From a virus (lineage: Duplodnaviria; Caudoviricetes): 64,000 nucleotides of DNA. Shown in pieces: positions 12,915-62,387 of the stretch; position 1 is the stretch's first letter, and the number at the start of each line of letters is the position of its first letter. A program made the translations under genes and the position numbers. The stretch is from the IMG/VR virus record IMGVR_UViG_3300034106_004043, one strand, 5' to 3'. Under the pieces are notes generated by a model. It was given only the letters and a program-made list of their open reading frames with translations. It searched no databases and was not told the DNA's origin.

Positions 12915-13823
12915 TTACCAACAAGTTATGATTACTAAACCGTCACCACCAGGACCTCCAGCACCACCAGCAGATAGAGATGTTCCAGCACCTCCTCCCC
13001 CACCTCCGCACCCAGGACCCCCTTTACCACCAACACCTCCCACACCAGCATTGTTACTAGCACCACCTGTACCTCCAAGACTAACAAATGGTTTCATCAT
13101 AAACATTCCATTAACACCTGCCCCACCAGCCGCGGCTCCTCCAACAACATCAACAACAAAACCTCTACCCGATATTGACCCACCATTTGCACTTGTACCA
13201 GGGTTTGCCGCATTTATACCACCTCCACCTCGTCCAGCAGAAAATGGTATAGAACCTGTTCCATATACACCAGCAAGTGGTGAAGCAGTTGCGTTACCAT
13301 CTCCACCTGTTATACCAATTCTATTTGTAAATGTTCCTAATGACACCATACCCATACCTGTATTAGTTGTCGCGGTACCTCCCGCACCTCCTGTACCACC
13401 CGCAGCACCTGTTCCAGGATTTCCGGCCGCTCCTCCATTAGCCTGAGCAATATATAAATTATTTAAACTCACCGTACCACCTAAGTTAGTACTAACAATT
13501 GATTGACCACCAGCAGTACCCGCAGTTGCAGGATTACCACCAGCACCACCTGGTCCTCCCGTACCAACCAATATGAGTAAACTATCTGATAGAAAAATTT
13601 TAGGTATAACTACACGAGTAAGAGCACCTGTTCCTCCACCTCCACCTCCACCACCAGCTGAACCAGCGGCTCGAGTAAATCCACCTCCTCCTCCACCTCC
13701 TGCACCCATACATAAGATATAGACCATAGTTATACCTTTAGGTAAAGTGTAAGCATATTGACCCGCAGTATAATATATTTGCGTTTTGTGAGCGTTATTT
13801 GTTAAATTATATGCAAAATCCAT
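12915..13823 (-). CDS. glycine-rich (polyglycine II) gp38-like adhesin, copy 3
   Basis: PKGITMVYILCMGAGGGGG...GGDGLVIITCW; many GGxGG motifs. Confidence 0.65.
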   Translation of the reverse strand: MDFAYNLTNNAHKTQIYYTAGQYAYTLPKGITMVYILCMGAGGGGGGGFTRAAGSAGGGGGGGGTGALTRVVIPKIFLSDSLLILVGTGGPGGAGGNPATAGTAGGQSIVSTNLGGTVSLNNLYIAQANGGAAGNPGTGAAGGTGGAGGTATTNTGMGMVSLGTFTNRIGITGGDGNATASPLAGVYGTGSIPFSAGRGGGGINAANPGTSANGGSISGRGFVVDVVGGAAAGGAGVNGMFMMKPFVSLGGTGGASNNAGVGGVGGKGGPGCGGGGGGAGTSLSAGGAGGPGGDGLVIITCW

Positions 13824-13833
13824 AATTAAATTT

Positions 13834-14706
13834 TTACCAACACTGTATTATTACTAAACCATCACCTCCACGTCCTCCTGTCCCTCCAACACCTGTAGGT
13901 GTGGTACCAGCACCACCACCTCCACCACCAGTACCAATGTTTCCATCACCACCTGCTCCACCTGAAGCAGGTGTAGTACCACCTCCTCCACCACCACTTC
14001 CTGCAATAGAATAGAATGGGGTTAATGAAAATACCCCTACACTACCTGCACCACCTGACTGTCCTCCAGTATTTGTAGGGACTATACCTGCACCTGTTAA
14101 ATTTCCTCCATTTGTTGGTGTGGTAGCTCCTGCCGCCATACCCCCTCCACCAGCACCCCCATATAACATACCAAGAGAACCCCATGTAAGTGAAGTTCCA
14201 TTAGTTGTTGTCCCTGCACCTCCACCAAGGCCTGCAATTGTTGTCCAAACTCCAATCGTTGAGTATAATGCGTCTGCAACGTTAGCGGTGGAGCCTCCAT
14301 TACCAGCAGTTGCTCCATTACCTCCAGTACCACCTGAAGTGGTTATAATACGTGTATATATATCAGTATTACCAGGAACAGGCATATCAACAAATGTAGG
14401 ACCTCCATTACTTCCAGCTCCTCCACTCGATACTCCCCCAGCACCTCCAGTACCTACATTTATTATCAAAGAATCTGTTATAAAAATTTCAGGAATAATT
14501 AATCTAGTTAAACATCCACCTCCACCACCTCCACCTCCTGACCTATTATTTGCAGATGAGTTAGTAGCACCACCAGCTCCCCCACCACCAGCACTAATAG
14601 CAGTAATGGATATCATAGTTATACCTTGAGGTTTTATCCAAGTTCCTGACTGATAAAACACTTGTGTTTTATAACTATAATCAGCTAAATCATATACAAA
14701 ACTCAT
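13834..14706 (-). CDS. glycine-rich (polyglycine II) gp38-like adhesin, copy 2
   Basis: PQGITMISITAISAGGGG...GGDGLVIIQCW. Confidence 0.65.
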   Translation of the reverse strand: MSFVYDLADYSYKTQVFYQSGTWIKPQGITMISITAISAGGGGAGGATNSSANNRSGGGGGGGGCLTRLIIPEIFITDSLIINVGTGGAGGVSSGGAGSNGGPTFVDMPVPGNTDIYTRIITTSGGTGGNGATAGNGGSTANVADALYSTIGVWTTIAGLGGGAGTTTNGTSLTWGSLGMLYGGAGGGGMAAGATTPTNGGNLTGAGIVPTNTGGQSGGAGSVGVFSLTPFYSIAGSGGGGGGTTPASGGAGGDGNIGTGGGGGGAGTTPTGVGGTGGRGGDGLVIIQCW

Positions 14707-14718
14707 ATTACATACAAA

Positions 14719-15621
14719 TTACCAACAAGTTATTATTACCATCCCAGGTCCTCCATCTCCACCACTACCACGTGTGGTTCCTGAACCCCCACCTCCTCCT
14801 CCACAACCAATTTCACCTTTTCCACCATTACCAGCAGTTCCAAGAGCAAAAGAACCACCACCAGCTCCTCCTAATGAGAAAAAAGGTAAGTTTATAAAAA
14901 TACCACTTGCCCCATTATTTGTTCCACCACCCGCACCTCCTGTCATTGTTGGGATTGTTGCACTTCCGGTAATATTACCACCGGCGAAATTTGCGTCAGC
15001 CGCACTTTTTCCTCCTCCAGCAGCTCCGCCTGTTATTGGTAATCCTGACGACGCAACAGTTATTGAACCTCCAGCGGCAGCATTGACACCTCCCGCACCT
15101 GCTTGTCCAGCGATAGACACAAAAGTACCCATTGTTAGATAAATTGCGTTTCCTTGAGTTGCAATTGCTCCTGCACCTCCACCGGCAGAGGAAGCACCAG
15201 CAGCACCTACGTTTCCACCTGAACCCGCGGCCGCGAATACTACACGAGTTTGGATAGCAGTCGTATCCCCTCTTGCGATATCAACATATGTCGACGCACC
15301 ATTCGCGCCTCCTGAACCTCCTGTACCACCCGTACCTCCAGCACCAACAGTTACTTTTAAACTTTCAGATAATAAAATAGCAGGTATTGTTAATCGAGTT
15401 ATTGCCCCCGAACCACCACCACTACCGCCTGAAGCCGCAGTACCCGTAGATTGGTTACCCGAAGCTCCTCCTCCTCCAGCACCAATAGCCGTGATATGTA
15501 CCATAGTAATACCTCTTGGTTTAACCCAATAAAAAGTACTTAAAGAGGCATTGGTACCTATTGTCCCTGTATAGATTTTAGTGTGATATTGATTGTCAGC
15601 TAAATTGTAATAGTCAATCAT
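14719..15621 (-). CDS. glycine-rich (polyglycine II) gp38-like adhesin, copy 1
   Basis: PRGITMVHITAIGAGGGG...GGPGMVIITCW. Confidence 0.65.
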   Translation of the reverse strand: MIDYYNLADNQYHTKIYTGTIGTNASLSTFYWVKPRGITMVHITAIGAGGGGASGNQSTGTAASGGSGGGSGAITRLTIPAILLSESLKVTVGAGGTGGTGGSGGANGASTYVDIARGDTTAIQTRVVFAAAGSGGNVGAAGASSAGGGAGAIATQGNAIYLTMGTFVSIAGQAGAGGVNAAAGGSITVASSGLPITGGAAGGGKSAADANFAGGNITGSATIPTMTGGAGGGTNNGASGIFINLPFFSLGGAGGGSFALGTAGNGGKGEIGCGGGGGGSGTTRGSGGDGGPGMVIITCW

Positions 15622-15627
15622 AATTTT

Positions 15628-15813
15628 TTAAGCCCATGATGGTCTTGGAGGGTTTGAATCAACAACTCGGTATCCGAAATTTATTGTCAAATCTAAAGTA
15701 TTACCGTCTAAATCGGTTAATCTTAAACATTGTCCTGCCATCCAATCTATTTCCATATATCCCATAGATACTGGCGAACCGTATTCAAATTGTATTAATT
15801 GGTATATTAACAT
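15628..15813 (-). CDS. small hypothetical protein (fibre-tip assembly factor?)
   Basis: 61 aa; ATG overlaps the upstream TAA (TAATG coupling); fills the gap between genes. Confidence 0.6.
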   Translation of the reverse strand: MLIYQLIQFEYGSPVSMGYMEIDWMAGQCLRLTDLDGNTLDLTINFGYRVVDSNPPRPSWA

Positions 15814-16232
15814 TAGTAGTCCCCTCCTATAACCGTTGCGTCAATACCACCAGCGGCTGCGGCACCGATTGTTACATAAATTATATAATTAGGAGGTAAA
15901 GCAAACATAAGTGGTAATTCATAGTTGGTTGACGCTGCGTTGGTAACAAATGTTGCATTTGCCGCAATTGTTATTTCATCAAATAAAGTGTTATTAGCTG
16001 CGGTAGTAGTTGTTGAACCATTATTAATCCAAACACGACCAACAGTTGCCGCCGAATTTGCACCTGTATGTCTAAATCTTATTTTTTGCACATAACTCCC
16101 TTCGGTACCTGCGGTAAAAACAGGATAAACTGTACCTGAGGTTAAATCTCCCGTATTATTCGCAGCCGTAATGCTAACATTCCACATAATCTCAGGTCTT
16201 AGTGTAAAAATTGGTGCTGTATTTGCTGGCAT
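15813..16232 (-). CDS. small beta-rich virion protein, putative fibre-tip connector
   Basis: MPANTAPIFT...VIGGDY; directly downstream of the giant fibre gene. Confidence 0.6.
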   Translation of the reverse strand: MPANTAPIFTLRPEIMWNVSITAANNTGDLTSGTVYPVFTAGTEGSYVQKIRFRHTGANSAATVGRVWINNGSTTTTAANNTLFDEITIAANATFVTNAASTNYELPLMFALPPNYIIYVTIGAAAAGGIDATVIGGDY

Positions 16233-16268: not shown

Positions 16269-19200
16269 TTATATAAAGTTAAAATTGTTTGCTGTTGTAT
16301 AAACAAGTCCTAATGTGAATGTTCCACCCGCAGCTCCTGCAGCTCCTGAGGTACCTGATGAACCAGTAATACCCGATGAACCTGAAGTACCTGATGAACC
16401 TGATGTTCCAGATGTACCGTTAACAATAATAGTAACTGCACATACGTCATTTACTGTAAGTGTTGTATCACCACCATTTGTATATAATGCACCTGTAAAC
16501 AAATAATCACTACCACTTACACTTACATTGTTGAAGTAGTAAATATCAATTTTATTTGAACCATTTAAATTAAAAATTAAATATACAATCCCTTGTGTTC
16601 CAACTAAGTTTAAAAAATAATCACTTAAATCTGCTGAGTCAGCAGTTACTACGTCAAATTTCAAATCATACACCGCTACACCCGCTCCTTGATAAGTAAA
16701 TTGACCTGAAGCAGGTGCACCTCCTGTCCCACCACCGTATTGGTATTGAAGACCACCTTTATTACCTTGACTACCTGATGTGCCTGATGAACCACTTGTT
16801 CCTCTTGAACCCGTACTTCCGCTAGACCCCGAACTACCTGAAGAACCCGAACTTCCACTAGAACCACTTGTTCCCGATGAACCTGAAGAACCTGAACTAC
16901 CAGATGAACCTGATGTGCCAGAACTACCTGATGAACCACTTGAACCTGATGTTCCTGAGCTTCCGCTTGTCCCTGAAGAACCAAAACCTGATGAACCAGA
17001 TGTTCCACTAATACCATCTAATCCGCTTGTTCCTGATGAACCTGAACCTGAGCTACCTGATGAACCAGCACTTCCTGAAGAACCGCTAGTTCCACTACTT
17101 CCTGTAATACCTGAAGAACCTGAGCTTCCACTTGAACCTGATGAGCCAGAAGAACCTGATGTTCCTGAACTACCGCTAGTACCCGAAGAACCTGTATTAC
17201 CGCTTGAACCTGAACTTCCTGAAGAACCGCTAGTTCCTGAGCTACCACTTGTACCTGTACTACCCGATGAACCCGAACTTCCTGAAGAACCACTTGTTCC
17301 TGATGAACCTGATGTACCAGAACTTCCAGTATTACCTGACGAGCCTGAACTACCCGCACTTCCACTTGAACCTGATGTTCCTGAGCTTCCACTTGTTCCT
17401 GATGAACCTGTATTACCAGAACTACCACTACTTCCTGAAGAACCACCTGACCCTGATGTACCCGAAGAACCAGATGTTCCTGAGCTACCACTTGAACCTG
17501 AAGTTCCACTCGTTCCTCTTGACCCTGTACTACCAGATGAACCAGAACTACCACTAGAACCTGATGACCCACTACTACCTGAAGTTCCTGAAGAACCGCT
17601 AGTTCCACTTGACCCAGCACTTCCACTAGAACCTGAACTTCCGCTTGACCCCGAACTACCTGAAGAGCCTGATGTACCACTTGAACCAGAAGTTCCTGAT
17701 GAACCACTATTACCCGAAGAACCTGAGCTTCCACTTGAGCCAGAAGACCCTGATGTTCCTGATGAACCGCTAGTACCAGATGAACCTGTGTTTCCACTTG
17801 ACCCTGAACTACCAGCACTTCCTGAAGAACCACTTGTCCCTACTGAACCTGAAGTACCAGCACTACCGCTAGAACCAGAACTACCTGTACTACCACTTGA
17901 GCCTGATGTTCCAGAACTACCACTTGTTCCTGTACTACCCGATGAACCGCTAGTTCCTGAAGTACCACTTGTTCCTCTTGAGCCTGTACTTCCGCTAGAA
18001 CCCGAAGACCCACTTGAGCCTGAACTTCCAGCACTTCCTGAAGAACCACTTGTACCTACCGAACCTGAAGTACCAGCACTACCGCTAGAACCACTACTTC
18101 CACTTGAACCAGATGAACCTGACGTTCCACTACTACCAGATGCCCCTGAACTTCCACTAGACCCTGACGAGCCACTTGAACCAGAAGAACCGCTAGAACC
18201 TGAAGTCCCTGATGAACCAGAGCTACCTGATGTTCCGCTACTTCCATTAGCACCTGATGTACCAGCAGAGCCAGAACTACCACTACTTCCCGAAGAACCT
18301 GAACTTCCACTTGTACCAGATGTTCCCGAACTTCCGTTAACTCCTGATGTTCCTGAACTACCACTTGAACCTGATGAACCAGCACTTCCTGATGAACCAC
18401 TTGACCCAGATGTTCCACTGCTTCCATTAGCACCTGATGTACCAGCACTTCCTGAAGAACCAGTTGAACCTGAACTTCCACTAGAACCACTACTACCTGA
18501 TGTTCCACTACTTCCATTGGCTCCAGATGTTCCTGATGAACCTGAACTACCACTTGAACCCGAACTACCACTTGAGCCAGAAGAACCTGATGTACCAGAG
18601 CTACCATTAGAACCAGAAGTTCCTGAAGACCCACTTGAACCTGAGCTACCTGATGTTCCCGATGTTCCTGAGGTTCCTGAAGAACCACTAGTACCTCTTG
18701 AACCCGTACTACCCGATGACCCTGAACTACCACTACTTCCACTAGAACCTGATGTTCCAACAGAACCAGAACTACCGCTACTTCCACTTGAACCAGATGA
18801 ACCACTTGAGCCAGATGTTCCTGAACTACCATTAGCACCTGATGTACCAGAACTTCCAGCACTACCACTAGAACCTGAAGAACCACTAGACCCTGAACTT
18901 CCTGATGTTCCACTTGAACCAGAAGAACCTGTACTTCCTGAACTACCACTTGAACCAGATGTCCCAGTTGAACCTGAACTTCCTGATGAACCAGCACTTC
19001 CGCTAGACCCCGAACTACCTGATGTTCCACTGCTTCCATTGGCCCCCGATGTACCACTACTTCCTGAGCTTCCAGCACTACCGCTAGAACCTGACGAACC
19101 ACTTGTACCTGAAGAACCGTTAGTTCCAGATGTTCCCGACGAACCTGAAGAACCACTAGAACCTGAAGAACCTGATGTACCCGAAGTACCTGATGTTCCT

Positions 19201-22200
19201 CTTGAACCAGTACTTCCTGAAGAACCTGAACTACCACTACTTCCTGAACTTCCACTCGTACCAGCACTTCCTGATGAACCAGAACTTCCTGATGAACCGC
19301 TAGAACCTGATGTTCCAACGGAACCAGAACTACCACTTGAACCAGATGTTCCTGAACTTCCATTAGCACCTGATGTACCCGCAGAGCCAGATGACCCTGA
19401 ACTACCACTACTTCCTGAAGAACCACTTGTACCTGAACTTCCGTTAGCTCCCGATGTACCTGATGAACCACTACTTCCTGAGCTTCCGGATGACCCCGAA
19501 CTACCTGATGTACCAACAGAGCCAGAACTTCCTGAACTTCCAGTACTACCGCTAGACCCTGACGAACCACTTGTTCCTGACGAACCTGATGTTCCGCTAC
19601 TACCCGATGAACCTGAACTACCAGCACTTCCTGAAGAGCCACTTGTCCCTACTGAACCTGAAGTACCAGCACTACCACTAGAACCACTACTACCTGATGT
19701 ACCACTAGTACCCGATGTTCCTCTTGAACCTGTAGAACCTGAACTTCCGGATGAACCACTTGAACCAGAACTTCCTGAAGAACCAGATGTACCTGATGTT
19801 CCACTATTTCCTGAACTACCACTAGTACCGTTTGTACCATCAACACCACTTAATCCTGATGAACCCGAAGTACCAACAGAACCTGAACTCCCACTACTAC
19901 CCGATGAACCAGAACTTCCTGATGTACCATTTGAACCAGATGTTCCTGAACTACCACTAGTTCCTGAAGTACCGCTAGTTCCTCTTGAACCTGTACTACC
20001 AGATGACCCTGAACTTCCACTAGAACCCGATGAACCGCTAGACCCTGAAGAACCACTAGTTCCACTTGAACCTGAGCTTCCTGAAGTACCTGTACTACCC
20101 GATGAACCAGAACTTCCTGAACTACCACTAGAACCAGTACTTCCCGAAGTTCCTGATGTCCCGCTTGTACCTACAGAACCTGACGTTCCTGAGCTTCCAG
20201 TACTACCGCTAGAACCTGATGAACCTGATGTTCCACTACTACCTGATGTTCCAGTACTTCCACTTGAACCTGAACTACCACTTGAGCCAGAAGAACCAGC
20301 ACTACCTGATGTTCCTGTACTTCCTGACGAACCACTTGAGCCAGTACTTCCTGACGAACCAGATGTTCCAACACTTCCGCTTGAGCCTGATGTTCCACTA
20401 GTACCTACACTACCTGAAGTACCACTTGTACCCGATGTACCTACAGAACCCGAAGAACCTGAACTTCCACTAGTCCCCGAAGTACCTACCGAACCACTAG
20501 TCCCCGATGTTCCTGATGAACCAGATGTTCCTGACGTTCCGCTAGTTCCTGACGAACCAGAAGTTCCACTTGTTCCTCTAGAACCTGTTGAACCAGAACT
20601 TCCGCTTGAGCCTGAGCTTCCTGAAGAACCCGTACTACCACTTGAGCCAGATGAACCTGAAGTACCAGATGAACCACTTGTTCCACTACTTCCTGAACTA
20701 CCCGTTGAACCTGATGACCCACTACTACCTGAAGTTCCTGAACTTCCGCTAGTTCCCGATGTACCTGATGAACCAGAACTACCGCTAGACCCTGAACTTC
20801 CACTACTTCCTGATGTACCTGCAGAACCAGATGACCCTGAACTACCACTACTTCCACTAGAACCTGATGTTCCACTTGTACCAGTACTCCCTGAAGAACC
20901 TGATGAGCCACTACTTCCACTCGAACCTGAAGTACCAGTTGAACCCGAACTTCCACTTGTACCAGTACTCCCTGATGACCCCGCACTACCACTTGAGCCA
21001 GAGCTTCCAGATGTTCCACTAGTACCTACTGAACCTGAAGTTCCTGAAGAACCAGACGAACCTACTGAACCTGACGTTCCTGAAGTACCAACACTTCCAG
21101 ATGAACCTGATGTTCCGCTAGTTCCTCTAGAACCTGTTGAACCAGAACTTCCTGATGAACCTGAAGTTCCACTACTCCCTGATGAACCCGCACTACCACT
21201 TGAGCCAGAGCTTCCAGATGTTCCACTACTACCTGAAGTACCAACAGAACCGCTAGACCCTGACGAGCCAGCACTACCTGATGAACCTGAAGTTCCGCTT
21301 GTACCTACTGAACCCGAACTACCTGAAGAACCTGAACTTCCACTTGAGCCAGCAGAACCTGATGTTCCTGAAGAACCATTAACCCCTGATGTACCAGCAC
21401 TTCCCGCAGAACCTGATGAACCAGTACTTCCTGAGCTTCCAGCACTACCGCTAGAACCTGACGAACCACTTGTTCCTGATGAACCGCTAGTTCCAACACT
21501 ACCACTTGAACCTGATGACCCACTTGAACCAGAAGTTCCAGATGTTCCTACACTTCCACTTGTACCTGCAGAACCTGAACTTCCACTACTTCCTGATGTT
21601 CCCGAACTACCTGAAGAACCGGATGTACCTACACTACCACTAGTTCCTGAAGTACCGCTAGTTCCTCTTGAACCTGTACTACCTGAAGAGCCAGATGACC
21701 CAGAACTTCCTGAAGAACCGCTAGAACCTGAACTACCGCTAGTTCCGCTTGACCCTGATGAACCGCTAGTACCTGATGAACCGCTAGTACCTGATGTACC
21801 AACACTACCACTTGAACCAGAAGAACCTGAACTACCACTAGTCCCTGATGTACCAACACTTCCTGAACTTCCAGCACTACCGCTAGAGCCTGAAGAACCG
21901 GATGTGCCTACACTTCCCGATGAACCACTACTTCCGCTTGACCCAGATGTACCAACAGAACCAGAACTACCACTTGTTCCAGCACTACCACTAGAACCGC
22001 TACTACCTGATGTTCCTGAAGAACCGCTAGTTCCTGTTGAACCTGAACTTCCAGATGACCCAGTACTTCCCGAAGAGCCGCTAGTACCAGATGAACCCGT
22101 ACTACCACTTGAGCCTGAACTTCCTGATGTACCACTTGTACCTACTGAACCTGAGGTTCCACTTGTTCCTACACTTCCAGATGAACCTGAACTTCCACTT

Positions 22201-25200
22201 GAACCAGACGAACCTGAATTACCACTAGTTCCGCTTGACCCTGTACTTCCGCTAGAACCTGAACTTCCACTTGAACCAGAAGAACCGCTAGTACCTACGC
22301 TACCTGATGACCCTGATGTTCCCGAACTACCACTAGAACCTGAAGTTCCAGAACTTCCTGAACTACCAGTCGAGCCAGAACTTCCTGATGAACCACTACT
22401 ACCGCTAGTACCTGAACTACCCGTACTTCCAGATGAACCTGAAGTTCCCGATGTACCTACACTACCACTTGAACCTGATGTTCCAGTACTTCCTGACGTA
22501 CCACTTGTCCCAACACTTCCTGATGTACCACTAGAACCTGATGTTCCTGAAGAACCGCTAGTTCCTCTTGAACCTGTTGACCCTGAACTTCCTGATGAAC
22601 CAGAACTTCCACTTGAACCGGATGAGCCACTTGTACCTGATGAACCGCTAGTTCCAACACTTCCACTTGAACCAGAACTTCCTGAACTTCCACTTGTACC
22701 AGATGTACCTGACGAACCTGATGTCCCAACAGAACCAGAACTTCCTGAGCTTCCAGCACTTCCGCTAGAACCTGACGAACCACTTGAACCTGATGTACCT
22801 GAACTTCCGTTAGCACCTGATGTACCCGACGAACCACTTGAACCAGATGACCCCGTACTTCCACTACTTCCTGAAGAACCAGAAGTTCCAGAACTTCCGC
22901 TTGTTCCTACACTACCACTAGACCCTGAAGAACCACTTGAACCAGATGTTCCACTAGTTCCAGAAGTACCAACACTACCACTTGAGCCAGATGTTCCGCT
23001 AGTTCCTACACTACCTGAAGAACCTGATGTTCCACTAGTACCTACACTACCCGATGAACCTGATGTTCCAACACTACCACTTGAACCTGAACTACCTGAA
23101 GAACCAGAACTACCTGATGTTCCTGAGGTTCCAGTACTTCCACTAGAACCTGCACTTCCTGAAGAACCACTTGAACCTGATGTACCAGAAGTTCCAACGC
23201 TACCACTACTACCTGAACTTCCACTTGAGCCGGTAATACCTGAAGTTCCACTTGAACCTGAACTACCTGATGAACCGCTAGTCCCTGTTGAACCAGAGGT
23301 TCCACTAGTTCCTGTACTTCCGCTAGAGCCTGAACTACCGCTAGTACCTACACTACCCGACGTACCAGAGCTTCCTGAAGACCCTGTACTTCCACTTGTA
23401 CCTGATGTTCCAGTTGAACCACTTGTTCCTGAAGTCCCCGTTGAACCTGATGTACCACTAGTTCCTGTACTTCCACTTGAACCGCTAGTTCCTGAAGTAC
23501 CCGATGTTCCTCTTGAACCTGTAGAACCTGAACTTCCGGATGAACCACTTGAACCAGAACTTCCTGAAGAACCAGATGTTCCTACACTTCCACTTGTACC
23601 AGCTGAACCTGAACTACCAGAACTTCCTGAAGACCCACTAGAACCTGATGTTCCTGAAGAACCACTTGTACCTACTGAACCTGAACTTCCTGAAGAGCCA
23701 CTTGTACCTACTGAACCTGAACTTCCAGCACTACCACTAGACCCTGAACTTCCACTGCTTCCATTGGCTCCCGATGTACCTGATGAACCAGAAGTTCCGC
23801 TAGAACCTGATGAACCAGAAGTTCCCGAAGTGCCTGATGTTCCACTTGTACCACGACTTCCTGTAGAACCAGAACTTCCTGATGAACCAGTACTACCACT
23901 ACTTCCTGACGTACCACTAGTACCACTTGAGCCAGATGTTCCTGAAGAACCTGAGCTTCCAGCACTACCACTACTTCCACTTGTTCCCGTAGAACCTGAA
24001 CTACCAGCACTACCGCTAGACCCTGAACTTCCACTACTTCCTGATGTACCAGCCGAACCACTTGTTCCTGTAGACCCAGACGAACCACTTGAACCCGAAC
24101 TTCCTGAAGAACCACTTGAACCTGTTGAGCCAGAAGAACCTGAGGTTCCTGAACTACCACTTGAGCCACTAGTTCCAGTACTTCCCGAAGAACCTGAAGT
24201 ACCTACACTTCCTGACGAGCCAGATGTTCCTGAACTTCCAGTACTACCACTTGAACCCGAAGTACCACTTGTACCTGAGCTTCCAGCGCTTCCGCTAGAA
24301 CCTGACGAACCACTAGTTCCTGAAGTACCCACACTTCCCGAACTTCCACTTGAACCTGAAGACCCAGTTGAACCCGATGTTCCACTTGTACCTGAACTTC
24401 CACTATTTCCTGACGAACCGCTAGAACCTGACGTTCCACTAGTACCCGAAGTTCCTGATGTACCAACACTACCAGATGAACCTGAACTACCTGATGTTCC
24501 TGAGGTTCCATTAGTGCCGCTTGAACCAGATGTTCCTACACTTCCTGAGCTTCCACTAGTACCTGAAGTACCTACACTTCCTGAGGAACCAGATGTTCCG
24601 CTTGTACCTACAGAACCACTTGTTCCTGAAGAACCTGACGTACCAGTAGAACCACTTGTTCCTGAAGAACCTGACGTACCAGTAGAACCACTTGAACCTG
24701 TGCTACCGCTAGAACCTGACGTTCCTGAGCTTCCAGCGCTACCGCTAGAACCTGATGAACCACTTGTTCCAGATGTTCCGCTAGTTCCTACTGAACCAGA
24801 CGTTCCACTAGTTCCAACAGAACCAGAACTTCCTGATGTTCCGCTAGTTCCTCTTGAACCCGTACTACCTGAAGAACCAGAACTTCCCGATGAACCGCTA
24901 GTACCTGAACTACCTGTTGAACCTGAACTTCCACTTGAGCCAGATGAACCTGAAGTACCACTTGTTCCTACACTTCCACTTGTACCGGCAGAACCAGAAC
25001 TTCCCGATGAACCACTTGTTCCTGATGTGCCAGAAGTTCCAACACTTCCACTAGAACCAGATGTTCCGCTACTTCCTGAACTACCTGAAGACCCACTTGA
25101 ACCTGAAGTTCCGCTAGTACCTGTAGTTCCTGATGAACCACTAGTACCTGAAGAACCTGATGTCCCACTTGTTCCCGCAGTTCCTGAAGAACCTGAAGAA

Positions 25201-28200
25201 CCTGAAGTTCCACTTGAACCGCTAGTTCCCGATGTTCCTGTTGTACCTGAAGTTCCGCTTGTACCTGACGAACCTGAAGTTCCACTTGTTCCTGTAGTAC
25301 CGCTTGTGCCTGATGAACCTGACGTTCCACTCGTACCTGAAGAACCACTAGTTCCCGATGTTCCTGTTGTTCCGCTAGTTCCTGAGGAGCCTGAAGTACC
25401 ACTTGTACCTGAACTACCCGATGTTCCACTTGTTCCTGCAGTACCACTAGTTCCTGACGAACCGCTAGTACCACTCGTTCCTGATGAACCTGATGTTCCT
25501 GAAGTACCACTTGAACCTGAAGTTCCGCTAGTACCTGAAGAACCACTTGTTCCGCTTGTACCTGTTGTACCTGATGTTCCTGAACTTCCCGATGTTCCGC
25601 TAGTTCCCGAAGAACCACTTGTACCTGAGGTACCTGTAGTCCCACTTGTTCCTGAAGAACCTGATGTACCACTTGTACCTGTTGTCCCTGATGAACCACT
25701 AGTTCCAGAAGTTCCACTTGAGCCTGATGTTCCGCTTGTTCCTGAAGAACCTGATGTCCCACTTGTTCCACTTGAACCGCTAGTTCCCGATGTTCCTGTT
25801 GTACCCGAAGTTCCTGATGAACCTGAAGTTCCGCTTGTACCTGTTGTTCCGCTAGTACCTGAAGAACCACTTGTACCTGACGAACCTGAAGTTCCACTTG
25901 TTCCTGAAGAACCACTAGTTCCCGATGTTCCTGTTGTACCCGAAGTTCCTGAACTACCCGAAGTTCCGCTAGTCCCTGTTGTTCCACTTGAACCTGATGT
26001 TCCACTTGTTCCCGAAGTACCACTTGAACCTGACGTTCCGCTAGTTCCTGATGTTCCACTTGTTCCTGTTGTACCGCTAGTTCCTGAAGAACCTGAAGTA
26101 CCACTAGAACCTGAAGTTCCGCTAGTACCACTTGTTCCTGATGAACCTGAAGTTCCACTAGTACCTGTAGTACCTGATGTACCACTAGAGCCACTTGTAC
26201 CCGATGAGCCTGAAGTACCACTTGTACCCGTAGTGCCTGATGTACCACTTGAACCTGAAGTTCCGCTTGTTCCTGACGAACCTGAAGTTCCGCTAGTACC
26301 TGTAGTACCTGATGAACCGCTAGTACCACTTGTTCCTGAACTACCTGAAGTACCACTTGTTCCTGTAGTACCGCTAGTTCCTGAAGAACCTGATGTACCA
26401 CTCGTACCTGAAGAACCCGAAGTTCCGCTAGTACCCGATGAACCTGAAGTTCCACTTGTTCCTGTAGTACCGCTAGTTCCTGACGAACCCGAAGTTCCGC
26501 TAGTTCCTGATGTTCCTGAAGAACCGCTAGTTCCACTTGAACCCGATGTTCCACTCGTACCCGATGAGCCTGAAGTACCACTTGTTCCTGTAGTACCACT
26601 TGTTCCCGATGAACCTGATGTTCCGCTTGTGCCTGAAGAGCCTGATGTTCCGCTTGTTCCCGTAGTACCTGATGTCCCACTAGAACCTGAAGTTCCGCTA
26701 GTCCCTGATGAACCCGAGGTACCTGAAGTACCACTTGTTCCTGAAGAACCTGACGTACCACTCGTACCTGTAGTTCCAGATGTGCCTGAAGAACCACTTG
26801 TACCACTACTTCCTGATGTTCCTGAAGAACCGCTAGTACCCGATGTACCCGAGCTACCTGATGTACCGCTCGTACCCGATGAGCCTGAACTACCACTTGT
26901 ACCTGAACTACCACTTGAGCCAGATGTACCATCACTACCACTAGACCCTGAACTTCCTGACGTGCCACTTGAACCTGAAGTTCCTGATGAACCAGTTAAA
27001 CCAGAACTACCTGATGAACCTGAACTACCAGTAGAACCTGATGTACCACTACTTCCTGAAGAACCTGTTGTTCCACTTGTACCACTAGTACCACTAGTAC
27101 CAGCACTTCCTGAAGAACCTGAAGAACCTGTTGTTCCACTTGTACCACTAGTACCTGCACTTCCTGAAGAACCTGATGTTCCACTAGTACCATTAGTTCC
27201 TGAAGTACCCGAACTTCCCGAAGAACCAGATGTACCTGTAGTCCCACTAGTTCCTGATGTTCCTGAAGAACCAGAACTTCCCGATGAACCACTTGTTCCT
27301 GTTGTTCCACTAGTACCTGAACTGCCACTTGAACCATTTACCCCACTACTACCTGAACTACCACTTGAACCACTAATTCCTGAAGAACCTGATGTTCCCG
27401 ATGAACCACTTGTTCCGCTTTCACCTGATGTTCCTGACGAACCACTTGTCCCGCTTTGTCCTGATGTTCCACTTGAACCACTTGTCCCGCTTTGTCCTGA
27501 TGTTCCACTTGAACCTGTTAATCCACTACTACCTGACGAACCTGTTGAGCCAGAGCTACCACTAGTACCAGTACTACCTGATGTACCCGATGAACCACTT
27601 GAACCTGAACTTCCCGATGAACCACTTGAACCTGAAGTTCCTGAACTTCCGCTTGTACCAGAACTTCCCGAAGAACCTGACGTTCCACTTGTTCCCACAC
27701 TTCCTGAAGAACCTGAGGAGCCAGATGTTCCTGATGTACCCGAAGAACCTCCAGTACCTGATAGTCCTGATGAACCACTTGTACCTGATGTTCCACTTGC
27801 ACCATCAACACCATTAATACCTGATGTTCCAGCACTACCTGAACTACCGCTAGTTCCAGTACTTCCCGAAGAACCGCTATCCCCTGATGAACCAGACGTT
27901 CCACTTGTTCCTGATGTACCCGCAGAACCAGAACTACCTGATGAACCAGAACTACCTGAAGTTCCACTTGTACCTGCTGAACCTGAAGAACCAGAGCTAC
28001 CTGAAGAACCACTTGTACCCGCAGAACCTGATGTTCCAGAACTACCATTAGAACCAGATGCCGTAATACCTGTTACAGAAATAATAGTTCCATCACTATT
28101 ATATAATTCTAATGTACTTGTACCTGAAAAATAAGTACCACCCGTTAATTCAGTACCTTGAGCAAAAACTCTCCATCTCGCATTTTCTCTTGTAACACCA

Positions 28201-28676
28201 CTAACACCTTCAATAGTTGAGCCTGTCCAAGCATTAATAAATGCCTGACCTTCAGGTGTATTATTCTTTATAATAGTTTCGTAAGATAATTGAGTTACAG
28301 AATTAGCACTTACTGCAGCATCCCATAAATCATTGTAATTGTCTATTTGATATTGATATGCCGTTTCAGTTTCATTAACCCAAACAATCATACCCAATCT
28401 TCTTCTACCCGAAGAGAAATTGTCAGAATTTAAAGTTAAATATGTTGGAGAAAATGTACCGTTACCAATGTTAATATTAATAGGTATATTATTAACACTT
28501 AATTGTTGTTGTCCTTGCCCACTAAATGTTAAACCTAAATTAGTAAGGTATGCCGCCTCTTGCCATCCACCAACATTTAAAACATTAAAATTGGTTCCGT
28601 ATGGACTTGTTCTCGCTACACTGAAAGGTCCTGTAATTTGGGACGCACTTATTGGATTTTGATACGGTATTGCCAT
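16269..28676 (-). CDS. giant collagen-like (Gly-Ser/Thr-Ser)n fibre protein, 4135 aa
   Basis: ~207-aa N-terminal domain shared with 37487-39721; aa 208-3971 are Gly-X-Y repeats; small C-terminal globular domain and LGLVYTTANNFNFI tail. Confidence 0.85.
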   Translation of the reverse strand: MAIPYQNPISASQITGPFSVARTSPYGTNFNVLNVGGWQEAAYLTNLGLTFSGQGQQQLSVNNIPININIGNGTFSPTYLTLNSDNFSSGRRRLGMIVWVNETETAYQYQIDNYNDLWDAAVSANSVTQLSYETIIKNNTPEGQAFINAWTGSTIEGVSGVTRENARWRVFAQGTELTGGTYFSGTSTLELYNSDGTIISVTGITASGSNGSSGTSGSAGTSGSSGSSGSSGSAGTSGTSGSSGSSGSSGSAGTSGTSGTSGSSGDSGSSGSTGTSGSSGSAGTSGINGVDGASGTSGTSGSSGLSGTGGSSGTSGTSGSSGSSGSVGTSGTSGSSGSSGTSGSSGTSGSSGSSGSSGSSGSSGTSGSTGTSGSSGSTGSSGSSGLTGSSGTSGQSGTSGSSGTSGQSGTSGSSGTSGESGTSGSSGTSGSSGISGSSGSSGSSGVNGSSGSSGTSGTTGTSGSSGSSGSSGTSGTSGTTGTSGSSGSSGTSGTNGTSGTSGSSGSAGTSGTSGTTGSSGSSGSAGTSGTSGTSGTTGSSGSSGTSGSTGSSGSSGSSGLTGSSGTSGSSGTSGSSGSSGSDGTSGSSGSSGTSGSSGSSGTSGTSGSSGTSGTSGSSGTSGSSGTSGSSGTSGTTGTSGTSGSSGTSGTSGTSGSSGTSGTSGSSGTSGTTGTSGTSGSSGTSGTSGSSGTSGTTGTSGTSGSSGTSGTSGSSGTSGSSGTSGTSGTSGSSGTSGTTGTSGTSGSSGTSGTSGSSGTSGTSGSSGTSGTTGTSGTSGSSGTSGTSGSSGTTGTSGTSGSSGTSGTSGSSGTSGTTGTSGTSGSSGTSGSSGTSGTTGTSGTSGSSGTSGTSGTSGSSGTSGSSGTSGTTGTSGTSGTSGTSGSSGTSGTSGTSGSSGTTGTSGTSGSSGTSGTTGTSGTSGSSGTSGTSGSSGTSGSSGTSGTTGTSGTSGSSGTSGTTGTSGTSGSSGTSGTSGSSGTSGTSGSSGTSGTSGSSGTTGTSGTSGSSGTSGTTGTSGTSGSSGTSGTSGSSGTSGTTGTSGTSGSSGTSGTSGSSGTSGTSGSSGTSGTSGSSGTSGTAGTSGTSGSSGTSGTSGSSGTSGTTGTSGTSGSSGTSGTSGSSGTSGTTGTSGTSGSSGTSGTSGTTGTSGTSGSSGTSGSSGSSGTAGTSGTSGSSGTSGSSGTTGTSGTSGSSGSSGSSGSSGTSGSSGSVGTSGTSGTSGSSGSSGSAGTSGSVGTSGTSGSSGSSGSSGSTGSSGTSGSSGSSGSSGSTGSRGTSGTSGSSGSVGTSGTSGSVGTSGTSGTSGSSGSSGSAGSSGTSGSSGSTGSSGSTGTSGSSGTSGSTGTSGSSGTSGSVGTSGTSGSSGSVGTSGTSGSSGSVGTSGSSGTNGTSGTSGSSGSSGSVGTSGTSGTSGTSGSSGSSGNSGSSGTSGTSGSTGSSGSSGSSGSVGTSGTSGSSGSSGSAGSSGTSGTSGSSGSTGSSGTSGSSGSVGTSGSSGSTGTSGSSGSSGTSGSSGSTGSSGSSGSSGSSGSSGSTGTSGSAGTSGSSGSSGSSGSAGSSGSTGTSGSSGSAGSSGSSGTSGSSGTSGTSGSSGSTGSSGSSGSTGSRGTSGTSGTSGTSGSSGSSGTSGSSGTSGANGSSGSSGSSGSAGSSGSVGTSGSSGSSGSVGTSGSSGTSGSSGSSGSSGSSGSAGTSGSVGTSGSSGSSGSSGSSGSSGSTGSRGTSGTSGTSGSSGSTGTSGTSGSTGTSGTSGSTGTSGTSGSTGSSGSSGTSGSVGTSGSSGSSGSTGTSGTSGSTGTSGSSGSSGSSGTSGITGSSGSSGSSGSVGTSGTSGSSGSSGSAGSSGSTGTSGTSGSSGSSGSSGSSGSVGTSGSSGSVGTSGTSGSSGSVGTSGTSGSSGSVGTSGTSGTSGSSGSSGSSGSVGTSGSSGTSGSSGSSGSTGSSGSSGSSGTSGANGSSGTSGSSGSSGSSGSAGSSGSSGSVGTSGSSGTSGTSGSSGSSGSSGSVGTSGSSGTSGSSGSSGSSGSSGSSGSTGSRGTSGSSGTSGSSGTSGSVGTSGTSGSTGTSGSSGSVGTSGTSGSSGSTGSSGTSGSSGSSGSSGSTGSSGSSGTSGSSGSSGTSGSSGSVGTSGSSGSSGSSGSSGSTGSSGTSGNSGSSGSSGSSGSSGSVGTSGTSGSVGTSGTSGSSGSSGSTGSSGTSGSSGSTGSSGSSGSTGTSGSSGTSGSSGSSGSAGTSGSSGSVGTSGSSGSSGSSGSVGTSGSSGSSGSAGSSGSVGTSGTSGSSGSSGSSGSVGTSGTSGSSGTSGSSGSSGTSGSSGSSGSSGSSGSSGSSGSTGSRGTSGTSGTSGSVGTSGSSGSSGTSGSSGSSGSAGTSGSVGTSGTSGSSGSSGSSGSVGTSGSSGTSGSSGSSGSAGSSGSTGSSGSAGSAGTSGVNGSSGTSGSAGSSGSSGSSGSSGSVGTSGTSGSSGSAGSSGSSGSVGTSGSSGTSGSSGSSGSAGSSGSSGTSGSSGSSGSTGSRGTSGTSGSSGSVGTSGTSGSVGSSGSSGTSGSVGTSGTSGSSGSSGSAGSSGSTGTSGSSGSTGTSGSSGSSGSSGSSGSTGTSGTSGSSGSSGSSGSSGSAGTSGSSGSSGSSGSSGSSGTSGTSGSSGTSGSSGSSGSTGSSGSSGTSGSSGTSGSSGSSGSTGSSGSSGSSGSSGSTGSRGTSGTSGSSGTSGTSGTSGSSGTSGTSGSVGTSGTSGSSGSSGSVGTSGTSGTSGSVGTSGTSGSSGSVGTSGSSGSTGSSGSSGSTGTSGSAGSSGSSGSSGSSGSTGTSGSSGTSGSSGSSGSTGSSGTSGSVGTSGTSGTSGSTGSSGSSGSSGSSGSTGTSGSSGSSGTSGSSGSSGSSGSSGSSGSSGSTGSRGTSGTSGTSGSSGTSGSNGTSGSSGSSGSSGSSGSVGTSGSSGLSGVDGTNGTSGSSGNSGTSGTSGSSGSSGSSGSSGSSGSTGSRGTSGTSGTSGSSGSSGSAGTSGSVGTSGSSGSAGSSGSSGSSGTSGSSGTSGSSGSSGSTGSSGSSGSVGTSGSSGSSGSSGSSGSSGTSGANGSSGTSGSSGSSGSSGSSGSAGTSGANGSSGTSGSSGSSGSVGTSGSSGSSGSSGSSGSAGTSGSSGSSGSSGSSGSTGSRGTSGTSGTSGSSGSSGSSGSSGTSGTNGSSGTSGSSGSSGSAGSSGSSGTSGANGSSGTSGSSGSSGSAGSSGSSGSTGTSGSSGSSGSTGSSGSSGTSGSSGSSGSSGSSGSAGSSGTSGANGSSGTSGSSGSSGSSGSSGSSGSVGTSGSSGSSGSSGSSGSTGSRGTSGSSGTSGTSGTSGSSGSSGSSGTSGSNGSSGTSGSSGSSGSSGSSGSSGSSGTSGANGSSGTSGSSGSSGSSGSTGSSGSAGTSGANGSSGTSGSSGSSGSAGSSGSSGSSGTSGVNGSSGTSGTSGSSGSSGSSGSSGSAGTSGANGSSGTSGSSGSSGTSGSSGSSGSSGSSGSSGSSGASGSSGTSGSSGSSGSSGSSGSAGTSGSVGTSGSSGSAGSSGSSGSSGSSGSTGSRGTSGTSGTSGSSGSTGTSGSSGTSGSSGSTGSSGSSGSAGTSGSVGTSGSSGSAGSSGSSGNTGSSGTSGSSGTSGSSGSSGSSGSSGNSGSSGTSGSSGTSGSSGSSGSSGSSGSSGSAGSSGTSGSSGTSGSSGSSGSSGSSGSSGSTGSRGTSGTSGSSGSSGTSGSSGTSGSGGSSGSSGSSGNTGSSGTSGSSGTSGSSGSAGSSGSSGNTGSSGTSGSSGTSGSSGSSGSSGSTGTSGSSGTSGSSGSSGSSGNTGSSGTSGSSGTSGSSGSSGSSGSSGSSGITGSSGTSGSSGSAGSSGSSGSGSSGTSGLDGISGTSGSSGFGSSGTSGSSGTSGSSGSSGSSGTSGSSGSSGSSGSSGTSGSSGSSGSSGSSGSSGSTGSRGTSGSSGTSGSQGNKGGLQYQYGGGTGGAPASGQFTYQGAGVAVYDLKFDVVTADSADLSDYFLNLVGTQGIVYLIFNLNGSNKIDIYYFNNVSVSGSDYLFTGALYTNGGDTTLTVNDVCAVTIIVNGTSGTSGSSGTSGSSGITGSSGTSGAAGAAGGTFTLGLVYTTANNFNFI
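16764..28055 (-). repeat. 9-nt-period coding repeat (~1,250 Gly-X-Y triplets), synonymously diversified
   Basis: CC recurs every 9 nt on the plus strand. Distances between landmark Arg codons from 17515 to 24850, and on to 28055, are exact multiples of 9 nt. Two register breaks lie near 16985 and 17045. Confidence 0.95.
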
Positions 28677-29914: not shown

Positions 29915-29915
29915 A

Positions 29916-30313: not shown

Positions 30314-31984
30314 TCAACATTCTTTCCTTAAATTACTATCATAATGTTCAAATCTATTATGTTCGGTAGGTGTGAGTAATAAAATACCTGGTTTTAATTT
30401 ACCTTTAATTGTGTTTTGGAAGTTGTGAGACATTAAAGTTTGTTCATACGGGTGTTGATATTTTGTCTCCAAATAACATTTATAACTCCCACTTTTTGAA
30501 AGAATTATCGGCCAATTACACAAATAGATTTCCCCTGACGCATAAGGTAAACCCTTATGTGTTTTTATCTCGTTGAATTTTGTTTTTGGAGCGTTCGGGT
30601 CTAATCCCTGTTGAGGTAGTTTTGGATTTTTTGGCCAATGTTGTTCTCTGAAATTTTGTGGTACATTATACCAACTCCATTGAGTACTATTATCACCATA
30701 AAACTCTGAAAAATTTAATTTTAAAAAATCAAAGTTTTCTTTATTAACTATCTCTAAACTTTTTTGATATAGATTACTTGCATACCTATTAAACCCATTT
30801 CTACACACTTCATTTTTTTGTGAATAAAAAAACATATCATCCTCAAAGAATAACATATAGTCCAACCCTGTTTCATCAAAATGTTCCGCAGTCCATTGTC
30901 TTCCACCTGTAATACCTATGTTATCTTTTTTAATATGTTCAAAATCATATTCTTTACAAAGTCTCAAGTATTCTTCTGTTGTTGATAGGTCAGTTGAGTT
31001 ATCCAATAAAAATTTCTTTGGTCTGTCTAAGAAATCCCTATCATATTCAATCATAGATTTAATTAATGTTTCAAATTGTTTTGGAGAATTGAATGTTATT
31101 ACATACAATGCAACTTTATCCATATCTAAGTCATTTTGAATTTTAACAAACTCTGTCTTTTTAACTAAAACATCATCTTTTAAATCCTCAAAGAATTTTC
31201 CAAATAAACCATTATATTCAATTTCAAAATAATTTATATATTCACTTAACTTATAAACCATTATTGAAAATATTGACTCCTCAGTTCCCATATACCCACT
31301 TGATAATGTATCATTCAATAGGTTATAGTATTCACCATTCATCTGTGATATGGTTTCTTTTGGTCCCCCAAAAAACCCACCTCGAGCAACTTTCTTCACA
31401 TCATCTTCAGCCCATTCATTAATCTTTGGATATGAAAATCCGTGTATCTCATTACTTGCGTCGTATGGAAAACAAACAAATGTAAACTTATCAATATACT
31501 TACTTAAATTATTTAAAACCTTATCGTGTGTGAAATATCCGGGATGAACAGTATTTGTAAGACCCGCATCAATCCAAAATAAAAACTCTGAATTAAATCT
31601 ATCAAAAATCCTTGCGTCGTTTAATAAAAACATTTTTGACATAACAAGTGGATTATACATTTCTAATCTACCTTGTGTTGATTCCTTTAACCAACCTGAT
31701 TGATTATACCATTCGGGATTGTTTCTGATTTGTTGTATTTTATTATAAAAGTCATTTTCAACAAACCAACTTTTATCTCTTAAAATAAATTGTGTATTAC
31801 TTTGGTCTCTTTTTTCCCAAACAAAATCTTCCAATTCTTTTTCACCAAAAATTATTAAGTTTTCTTCAACTTTTAATAGTTGTTCAAATTTTTCTAAATA
31901 ATGTGAAAAAGAACGAGACCAACCTTCTTCAAGATTTTCTCTACCAATATTCCACAATCCTGTAACTAATGTAATATTACTCAT
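30314..31984 (-). CDS. HtrL/YibB-like domain fused to a GT-A (GT2-like) glycosyltransferase domain
   Basis: ITLVTGLWNIGR, FWIDAG, GGFFGG and GTEESI are HtrL-type motifs; C-terminal LLDNSTD...FFEDD DXD-type motif. Confidence 0.65.
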   Translation of the reverse strand: MSNITLVTGLWNIGRENLEEGWSRSFSHYLEKFEQLLKVEENLIIFGEKELEDFVWEKRDQSNTQFILRDKSWFVENDFYNKIQQIRNNPEWYNQSGWLKESTQGRLEMYNPLVMSKMFLLNDARIFDRFNSEFLFWIDAGLTNTVHPGYFTHDKVLNNLSKYIDKFTFVCFPYDASNEIHGFSYPKINEWAEDDVKKVARGGFFGGPKETISQMNGEYYNLLNDTLSSGYMGTEESIFSIMVYKLSEYINYFEIEYNGLFGKFFEDLKDDVLVKKTEFVKIQNDLDMDKVALYVITFNSPKQFETLIKSMIEYDRDFLDRPKKFLLDNSTDLSTTEEYLRLCKEYDFEHIKKDNIGITGGRQWTAEHFDETGLDYMLFFEDDMFFYSQKNEVCRNGFNRYASNLYQKSLEIVNKENFDFLKLNFSEFYGDNSTQWSWYNVPQNFREQHWPKNPKLPQQGLDPNAPKTKFNEIKTHKGLPYASGEIYLCNWPIILSKSGSYKCYLETKYQHPYEQTLMSHNFQNTIKGKLKPGILLLTPTEHNRFEHYDSNLRKEC

Positions 31985-35735: not shown

Positions 35736-35736
35736 T

Positions 35737-35877
35737 TTATATTTCTATTATAGTATAGATTGTTGCGTCACCATTTATTAAAATCCATTCAAAACACTGC
35801 TCTTCAGTGAAGTCAATAGTTTCTTCCACCAATTCAGATGGTGTTACTCTCAAATCATATACACAATATTTTTTCAT
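35737..35877 (-). CDS. small acidic hypothetical protein, 46 aa (below the ORF-track cutoff)
   Basis: MKKYCVYDLRVTPSELVEETIDFTEEQCFEWILINGDATIYTIIEI*; fills the gap with 5-nt and 1-nt spacing. Confidence 0.6.
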   Translation of the reverse strand: MKKYCVYDLRVTPSELVEETIDFTEEQCFEWILINGDATIYTIIEI

Positions 35878-35882
35878 AATAA

Positions 35883-58436: not shown

Positions 58437-58437
58437 A

Positions 58438-58899: not shown

Positions 58900-58904
58900 A
58901 TTTC

Positions 58905-58911: not shown

Positions 58912-58921
58912 GTATGAAATT

Positions 58922-58945: not shown

Positions 58946-58961
58946 AACACATCGGATTTTT

Positions 58962-62374: not shown

Positions 62375-62387
62375 ATTGTTTTAATAA

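Follow-up and report, generated by a model that had tools for sequence, protein, structure and literature searches.

Collagen-like tracts in phage fibres, glycosylated Thr-rich collagens of bacteria and prokaryotic proteins of about 2,000 Gly-X-Y triplets are already known. The collagen-like shafts of prophages and phages are short, of the order of a hundred residues. EPclA and EPclB, the prophage-encoded collagen-like side-tail proteins of E. coli O157:H7, form triple helices (PMC3368898), and prophage collagen-like shafts are stabilised by Pro at the X position and by ∼22% charged residues (PMC11923368). Giant prokaryotic collagen-like proteins reach up to ∼2,000 triplets or 6,000 amino acids (aa), and are reported to depend on frequent KGE/KGD salt-bridge triplets and to contain many interruptions (PMC11923368). 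BclA, of the exosporium nap of Bacillus anthracis/cereus, is a collagen-like filament, trimeric and glycosylated, whose number of triplets differs between strains (PMC10470788), and this polymorphism sets the length of the nap filaments (Sylvestre et al., 2003, as cited in PMC10470788). We analysed a fibre gene on the minus strand of a 64,000-nucleotide stretch of DNA from a virus of the Caudoviricetes (IMG/VR record IMGVR_UViG_3300034106_004043; the whole stretch is called the window), whose source is an uncultured lake-water giant phage, a large myovirus. We hold with moderate confidence that the product of this gene is a collagen-like fibre, homotrimeric and O-glycosylated, whose length varies.

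The fibre resembles BclA in its Thr/Ser-based repeat, its strain-specific number of triplets and the presence in the same genome of a dedicated, here putative, glycosylation system. BclA repeats are mostly Gly-Pro-Thr and number from tens to a few hundred; the phage shaft differs in lacking Pro, in being Ser-dominant and in running through 1,224 unbroken triplets, and it is part of a virus protein rather than a spore protein. The sole sequence match to BclA (PDB 1wck, E 1e-5) runs through the repeat, with none outside it to the C1q/TNF-like trimerising domain at the C-terminus of BclA. EPclA, EPclB and the fibres of PHROG 1806 (‘collagen like minor tail’) likewise carry a Gly-X-Y shaft between globular ends; for EPclA the trimer and the triple helix were shown experimentally. 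Pro makes up 0% and charged residues 0.5% of the present shaft, which is more than 10-fold longer than theirs. In comparison with the giant prokaryotic collagen-like proteins, its triplet number is comparable or smaller, so that length alone is not unprecedented in prokaryotes; it differs from them in being viral, free of Lys and uninterrupted over 1,224 triplets. The cuticle collagen of Riftia pachyptila is an exceptionally long molecule of more than 1 µm. As summarised in PMC11923368, O-glycosylated Thr at the Y position replaces hydroxyproline in this collagen (Mann et al., 1996, as cited there), glycosylated Thr can stand in for hydroxyproline, and (Gly-Pro-Thr)10 folds only if galactosylated. 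Both of these retain proline, whereas the phage shaft has none and carries Ser in 81% of its Y positions. TibC/Aah enzymes hyper-glycosylate Ser in repetitive proteins; a cytoplasmic enzyme of the same equivalog (TIGR04414) is encoded by a close relative of the phage, but the known TibC/Aah substrates are beta-helical 19-residue autotransporter repeats and not Gly-X-Y. What is new is that a virus encodes 1,224 triplets without interruption, in combination with an absence of Pro, nearly zero charge, Ser dominance, hypervariable length, a conserved Arg motif and adjacent swappable glycosyltransferases, and no description of this repeat type was found in the literature searched.

The fibre gene comprises the following parts, in the order of the protein.

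16269..28676, minus strand: entire fibre gene, with 4,135 codons before the stop, the longest open reading frame (ORF) of the region
28056..28676, minus strand: N-terminal domain, aa 1-207, with an invariant SSGRRRLGM-type core
17040..28055, minus strand: main shaft, aa 208-3879, 1,224 uninterrupted Gly-X-Y triplets by register scan
16791..24869, minus strand: 14 copies of a ten-residue punctuation motif, GS(T)GSRGTSG, 87-333 residues apart
16749..17039, minus strand: register-break segment, aa 3880-3976, two one-residue breaks (GSG, GFG), then 7 and 26 triplets
16419..16748, minus strand: non-repeat knob domain of ∼110 aa, aa 3977-4086
16320..16418, minus strand: terminal 11 Gly-X-Y triplets, aa 4087-4119
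16272..16319, minus strand: C-terminal hydrophobic/aromatic tail of 16 residues, FTLGLVYTTANNFNFI

Computed from the translation, the unmodified protein has a mass of 339 kDa, with 2,409 Ser and Thr residues and 1,268 triplets in all (1,224 + 7 + 26 + 11). A preliminary description of this DNA had reported Gly at every third residue from aa 208 onwards, with two one-residue breaks towards the end; the register scan confirmed this and placed the breaks exactly where that description had put them, GSG at aa ∼3878 (nt ∼17045) and GFG at aa ∼3898 (nt ∼16985). Its remark that the distances between landmarks are multiples of 9 nt follows from the unbroken register, while the knob, the 11 further triplets and the 16-aa tail went beyond it. 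Gly thus stands at every third residue in long runs, as in collagen repeats, and two 1,000-aa pieces of the shaft scored 456 and 464 bits with Pfam Collagen PF01391 (cut-off 27.2), a match that alignments to PDB sequences showed to be driven by the Gly periodicity. The GS(T)GSRGTSG copies carry nearly all of the shaft Arg, the last of them lying six triplets ahead of the knob, and the peptide is kept while its codons vary (AGA/CGT, AGT/TCA). The motif marks super-repeat blocks; it may serve in registration or as a hinge, or be left over from a knob junction. An antisense ORF on the plus strand (16780-28134, 3,784 codons, rich in Glu, Pro, Leu and Val) was rejected as a by-product of GGN-WSN-WSN codon periodicity, because every homologue and every neighbouring gene lies on the minus strand.

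Position X of the main run is occupied by Ser in 730 triplets, Thr in 458, Ala in 11, Asn in 8, Val in 5, Ile and Leu in 4 each and other residues in 4, and position Y by Ser in 992, Thr in 94, Val in 52, Ala in 47, Asn in 20, Arg in 13, and Asp and Gly in 3 each. X and Y are therefore almost only Ser and Thr, as had been noticed earlier, these two making up 93% of the positions and providing roughly 2,300 hydroxyls in the shaft. Pro, whose absence had also been noticed, does not occur between aa 142 and aa 3987. Charged residues account for 18 of the 3,672 residues of the main run (13 Arg, 4 Asp, 1 Glu and no Lys). Gly makes up 33.4% of the run, with just 3 Gly at X or Y, and Gly at exactly one third is what collagen requires; the whole protein has one Cys.

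The Gly codons of the main run are mixed at the third base (GGT 668, GGA 427, GGG 73, GGC 59; heterozygosity 0.58), whereas the first two bases are GG in all 1,224. The periodicity of the shaft is far beyond chance. In aligned blocks of different alleles, 30 changes fell in Gly codons, none of them non-synonymous; the non-synonymous share was 13/34 for X codons and 15/38 for Y codons. Since no Gly change was non-synonymous, and GG is invariant while the third base is mixed, Gly and the unbroken register are under strict purifying selection, with the length of the shaft free to change. The autocorrelation of the triplets is nearly flat, with only weak lags and no turn periodicity. Recent tandem amplification was rejected as an origin of the repeat, as the units found by Tandem Repeats Finder are just 60–80% alike and have no dominant period, and the autocorrelation is nearly flat.

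Assembly expansion or stutter, which the preliminary description had named as a reason to doubt the repeat, is largely answered by the uniqueness of words at k = 31, by depth equal to the flanks in four runs and by the independent reassembly of relatives. Within the gene, the share of unique words is 96% at k = 31 and 100% at k = 101, and no exact repeat is longer than 84 nt. Between 74 and 87% of sampled words were present in 20 lake-water metagenome runs from 20 studies. Logan contigs from four runs (four studies) covered all 30 bins of the gene, and unique internal pieces matched at 100%; the order and the total length of the repeat lie beyond what these contigs can prove. In one run (X1), the depth of the internal unique pieces was 24–33x as against 25–29x for the flanks, which fits a single-copy gene of this content. 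For a sister phage, three independent IMG/VR assemblies agree over 10,645 nt of repeat with 1–4 differences, and for another relative four assemblies are identical across 10,618 nt. Such faithful reassembly of the relatives’ giant genes is strong, indirect support for the repeat as assembled. The IMG/VR contigs of twelve relatives (L013-L024) stop 0.3–3 kb into the repeat, which shows that short-read assemblies commonly fail within genes of this kind and that protein databases under-count them; a large protein collection returned no giant Gly-X-Y alleles.

A search of IMG/VR with the first 215 residues gave 27 loci, and the alleles compared here are given below with the identity of their N-terminal domains to that of the window.

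L037: N-terminal identity 100%, 2,435 aa, 701 triplets
Window allele: 4,135 aa, 1,268 triplets
L036 (phage G001): N-terminal identity 98%, 4,766 aa, 1,432 triplets plus extra knob domains
L038: N-terminal identity 92%, 1,998 aa, 507 triplets and a different C-terminal domain
L021: N-terminal identity 64%, at least 3,337 aa

Triplet number is thus strain-specific, with 701, 1,268 and 1,432 in phages whose N-terminal domains are 98–100% identical, and the longest unbroken registers in other alleles are 1,168, 658 and 486 triplets. The DNA flanking the fibre gene is 94–98% identical between the window and L001, and the fibre genes of the alleles are colinear mosaics of 87–97% identical blocks with many indels between them. 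A simple deletion as the origin of the difference between the 2,435-aa and the 4,135-aa allele was rejected on account of this mosaic structure. The GS(T)GSRGTSG motif occurs 6 times in L036, 7 times in L037 and not at all in L038. The C-terminal tail is identical in the 2,435-aa allele and has one L-to-I change in the 4,766-aa allele; it is possibly a docking strand for a tip protein or a chaperone. In relatives, small globular knobs stud the shafts (aa 3712-3828 and 4489-4598 of the G001 fibre; aa 1324-1500 and 2347-2463 of the L039 fibre of phage G003); they fall into two types or more, one of which is distantly akin to the C-terminal knob of the window, at 25–30% identity.

Genes for candidate modifying enzymes lie upstream of the fibre gene.

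30314..31984, minus strand: HtrL/YibB-like protein, 556 aa, of a family of lipopolysaccharide-core gene clusters, with a weak PHROG glucosyltransferase match
31977..33561, minus strand: variable cassette, a 291-aa ORF without assigned function and a GT25-family glycosyltransferase (239 aa)
33558..34802, minus strand: glycosyltransferase, Pfam GlcNAc (PF11397 230 bits; phrog_24687 568 bits)

We take PF11397 to be CAZy family GT60, the polypeptide alpha-GlcNAc-transferase type. Enzymes of GT60 start mucin-type O-glycosylation on Ser/Thr arrays in protists (PMC8724618). In close relatives, window positions 31985-33554 are replaced by three unrelated genes including a GT2 (L001:4591-6695; flanks 94–95% identical), and this exchange of cassettes suggests a strain-specific elaboration of the glycan. 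The relative G001 encodes a GT4 fused to a TibC/Aah-type O-heptosyltransferase (TIGR04414 hepto_Aah_TibC, 265 bits; cut-off 200), an enzyme seen in the relatives G001 and G002 and not inside the window. Searches of PDB sequences with the PF11397 and GT25 enzymes gave no match. Judging from these neighbouring genes, the shaft is most likely O-glycosylated.

The wider surroundings of the fibre gene point to the tail of the virion.

12915..16232, minus strand: genes downstream of the fibre, namely a 139-aa ORF plus three diverged paralogues (290-302 aa) with Gly_rich_2, PF21722
28706..29941, minus strand: partner gene, 411 aa, with a Thr-Pro mucin-like linker, 29 nt upstream of the fibre gene
37487..39721, minus strand: paralogous short fibre, 744 aa, with the same N-terminal domain and a different C-terminal domain
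56598-58899, co-oriented with the fibre gene: baseplate wedge genes

The window, from a large phage of low GC content, forms a late block with its genes in one orientation and also encodes a DnaB-like helicase, a ribonucleotide reductase, several very large ORFs, and Ig/SprB, ConA-like and PA14 lectin proteins. It contains two fibre modules, each made up of a fibre gene and a partner gene whose product has a Thr-Pro mucin-like linker. The partner C-terminal domain is common to 28706-29941 and to 39731-40735, the gene ahead of the paralogous fibre, and in L001-L023 and L025 a partner immediately precedes the fibre gene, at identities down to 41%; a PDB sequence search with the partner protein gave no match. 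The N-terminus of the paralogous fibre is 46% identical to that of the giant fibre, and it is followed by roughly 35–40 proline-free Gly-Ser/Thr triplets in several short runs. PHROG matches to tail-fibre and collagen-like minor tail families fall mainly in the collagen-like stretches of this paralogue and in the C-terminal part. The PHROG matches of the Gly_rich_2 paralogues are to tail fibre assembly and minor tail proteins, and their region is 94–100% conserved in L001, making them candidate tip or assembly proteins. By its context the fibre gene thus belongs to a tail/baseplate-fibre module, and it combines this place with an N-terminal anchor that is conserved and a distal part that varies, as phage tail fibres do.

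The N-terminal domain family has 202 library representatives at E ≤ 1e-3 and 128 at E ≤ 1e-30. Among the 150 matches listed, the domain is N-terminal in almost all, on proteins of 88–2,196 aa with unrelated C-terminal parts, and its presence on proteins of so many lengths indicates the usual tail-fibre anchor architecture, with the domain as a probable anchor to the partner protein or the baseplate. Gly-X-Y stretches of at least 10 triplets occurred in just 7 of the 150 listed, all 7 being proline-free, so that the giant shaft is a lineage-specific elaboration of an ordinary anchor-plus-variable-tip fibre. A homologue search restricted to giant proteins returned one relative of 2,510 aa, without Gly-X-Y. 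The AlphaFold model of the domain (predicted local distance difference test score, pLDDT, 81.6) had no fold match in the PDB (Foldseek best E 0.25; VIA-align wide best Z 3.9), and the domain matched no Pfam family, no annotated PHROG and no protein of the INPHARED phage collection. The C-terminal region gave nothing specific in Pfam or PHROG, and the knob fell only into unnamed viral clusters of the ESM Atlas.

Further observations concern the neighbouring genes. In the partner gene, contigs of three of the four runs carry 12-nt insertions at window positions 29369-29375, amounting to an in-frame length polymorphism of the partner, apparently at the C-terminal end of the Thr-Pro linker. Between the fibre modules (34872-37517) lie genes for a 287-aa protein with a PA14/GLEYA lectin domain and a 544-aa protein of the ConA-like/Laminin_G_3 kind, probable carbohydrate-binding virion proteins. 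An ORF of 1,891 aa directly after the baseplate wedge genes (50862-56537) had no PHROG match at E ≤ 0.001. In distant relatives (L044:232-4055, L021:4239-7886) a large protein with a weak C-terminal match to Peptidase_C1 (papain-like) is encoded ahead of the partner gene, two places upstream of the fibre, and no equivalent was seen in the window. INPHARED gave no DNA match for 56598-63758, and the nearest relatives of the baseplate wedge protein, 24–27% identical, belong to Flavobacterium phages, Microcystis phages and one uncultured 484-kb phage.

Taking these data together, we favour a fibre in which three chains, registered by their terminal domains, would wind into a collagen-type triple helix. 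This fold is preferred because it requires just what is seen, Gly in each third place and a register unbroken through constant indel turnover, which a disordered linker or an acceptor motif would not need, and phage fibres are normally trimers. The stabilisers of collagen and of bacterial collagen-like proteins are imino acids and Lys-Asp/Glu salt bridges (PMC11923368; PMC8968730). We propose dense O-glycosylation of the ∼2,300 Ser/Thr hydroxyls, which would stabilise and stiffen the helix, because the shaft has neither proline nor Lys-Asp/Glu pairs; with both missing, O-glycosylated Thr would be the remaining known mechanism, and it would fit the transferase genes. The candidate enzymes, cytoplasmic and encoded by the phage, would be the PF11397/GT60-type, GT25 and HtrL-like proteins, together with the TibC/Aah-type Ser O-heptosyltransferase of the close relative. 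The 207-residue N-terminal domain may dock the fibre on the product of the upstream gene, and thereby on the baseplate or the tail, leaving the knob and the short conserved tail at the distal end, which may bear one of the downstream glycine-rich proteins. Shaft length would shift quickly by in-register gain and loss of blocks, so that reach may be a tunable trait, as with BclA filaments, and the fibre could act as a long, bendable line, widening the radius of capture or passing through a thick host envelope.

If a triple helix is formed, the contour of the shaft would be 1.05–1.08 µm (3,672–3,769 residues x 0.286 nm). The ∼1.1 µm given in the preliminary description holds in this sense, as a contour, but overstates the reach, since a worm-like chain with a persistence length of 15–100 nm has a root-mean-square end-to-end distance of 0.18–0.44 µm. 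The reach is probably ∼0.2–0.45 µm unless glycans stiffen the shaft. More tentatively, and as a possibility that we would not call probable, the fibre may be a triple helix free of imino acids and charge pairs, held only by dense Ser/Thr O-glycosylation and tuned in length per allele by in-register block gain and loss, and may be the longest bacterial-virus appendage known, with a contour of ∼1.1 µm and up to ∼1.2 µm in the sister allele.

Several results weigh against a glycosylated triple helix of this length. The sequence-encoded stabilisers, imino acids and Lys-Asp/Glu pairs, are absent from the entire run of 3,672 residues, and Ser, which fills 81% of Y, is to our knowledge not a promoter of the triple helix. 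Globular domains are present at both ends of the shaft, with a putative role for either in trimerisation, and a three-copy prediction for aa 3900-4135 reached 0.22 where the mark is 0.32, which speaks neither for nor against a trimer. The C-terminal AlphaFold model (aa 3970-4135, 4-row alignment), in which the knob appears beta-rich, had a pLDDT of 38 and was unusable. Relatives at 64% N-terminal identity with long Gly-X-Y shafts have, in the 10 kb upstream, neither a homologue of these glycosyltransferases nor any glycosyltransferase Pfam match. In a distant relative, a PF11397 and HtrL pair stands beside a fibre that lacks Gly-X-Y and has a partner with a Thr-Pro linker, so that the substrate of the glycosyltransferases may be the Thr-Pro linkers of the partners. 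The total length of this allele derives from short-read assembly, and two sediment metatranscriptomes contained just 6–7% of the words and were not counted as expression.

The main rival retains the sugars and dispenses with the helix: a single extended O-glycosylated chain, or three chains joined at their ends only, would form a mucin-like brush acting as a tether or an anti-adhesive coat. With Ser/Thr at 93% of X/Y and no helix-stabilising residues, the composition does resemble that of glycosylation-acceptor tracts, mucin-type and TibC/Aah-type transferases occur in the lineage, neighbouring proteins have Thr-Pro mucin-like linkers, and the folding tools lent a trimer no support. A non-helical brush, however, needs neither the exact spacing of Gly nor a register of 1,224 triplets kept through indels in every allele; Gly is under absolute purifying selection while X and Y drift, and phage fibres are as a rule trimers. 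We therefore regard the brush as unlikely. Much less probable still is a compact polyglycine-II bundle or sheet with hydroxyl faces that bind ice or polysaccharide, on the pattern of the snow-flea antifreeze protein or the gp38-type adhesins, an alternative raised in the preliminary description. The snow-flea protein also has a tripeptide Gly periodicity, the downstream paralogues contain the glycine-rich domain PF21722, and the source is cold lake water, but polyglycine-II bundles need small residues on two faces, and the snow-flea protein has ∼45% Gly. In the fibre, Gly makes up 33.4% of the run and occurs only 3 times at X/Y, and the small residues on two faces, the recurring turns and the disulfides of the snow-flea type are all lacking, as is any period beyond weak lags; a 3,700-residue array of this kind would be without precedent. 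The ice-binding proposal thus found no support.

Two other alternatives leave the fold as proposed and concern its place or its length. The same fibre could sit on the capsid or neck, as a head fibre or whisker, and serve in reversible first contact, in aggregation or for buoyancy instead of receptor binding. Matches to Ig/Hoc-like decoration proteins occur in a nearby protein (40762-42906), and an N-terminal domain that matches no known fold or annotated family would suit such a site as well, but the gene shares one co-oriented block with the baseplate wedge genes, the PHROG matches of the paralogue and of the C-terminal part are to tail-fibre families, and genes resembling those for tail-fibre assembly lie downstream, making this location rather improbable. 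We give about as little weight to a real gene of wrong assembled length, its array having been expanded or collapsed, or pieced together from co-occurring strains, when the short reads were assembled. Several alleles do coexist in lake metagenomes, many contigs of relatives end inside the repeat, and the Logan contigs cross the gene in pieces of 300–600 nt with hundreds of short-sided joints. Against such an error stand the uniqueness of the 31-mers and 101-mers with no exact repeat beyond 84 nt, the perfectly matching internal pieces at flank depth, the recovery of most words in all 20 runs, the reproduction of 10.6-kb stretches of relatives with 0–4 differences by 3–4 independent assemblies, and a frame that is open and in register throughout.

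For metagenomics, the locus indicates that coding repeats of 12 kb assemble faithfully when their synonymous sites are scrambled. If the triple helix proposed here is true, the shaft would be a natural limiting case of the collagen folding code, relying on hydroxyls and perhaps sugars only, in place of proline, hydroxyproline or salt bridges; minimal helix stabilisation would then be directly testable in recombinant segments, with the 14 Arg markers as built-in trypsin probes, and hydroxylase-independent collagen designs are suggested for materials. The fibre would also show plainly that a phage can glycosylate a protein of its own virion, and a roughly micrometre-long, length-polymorphic fibre would alter estimates of the capture radius of phages in dilute waters.

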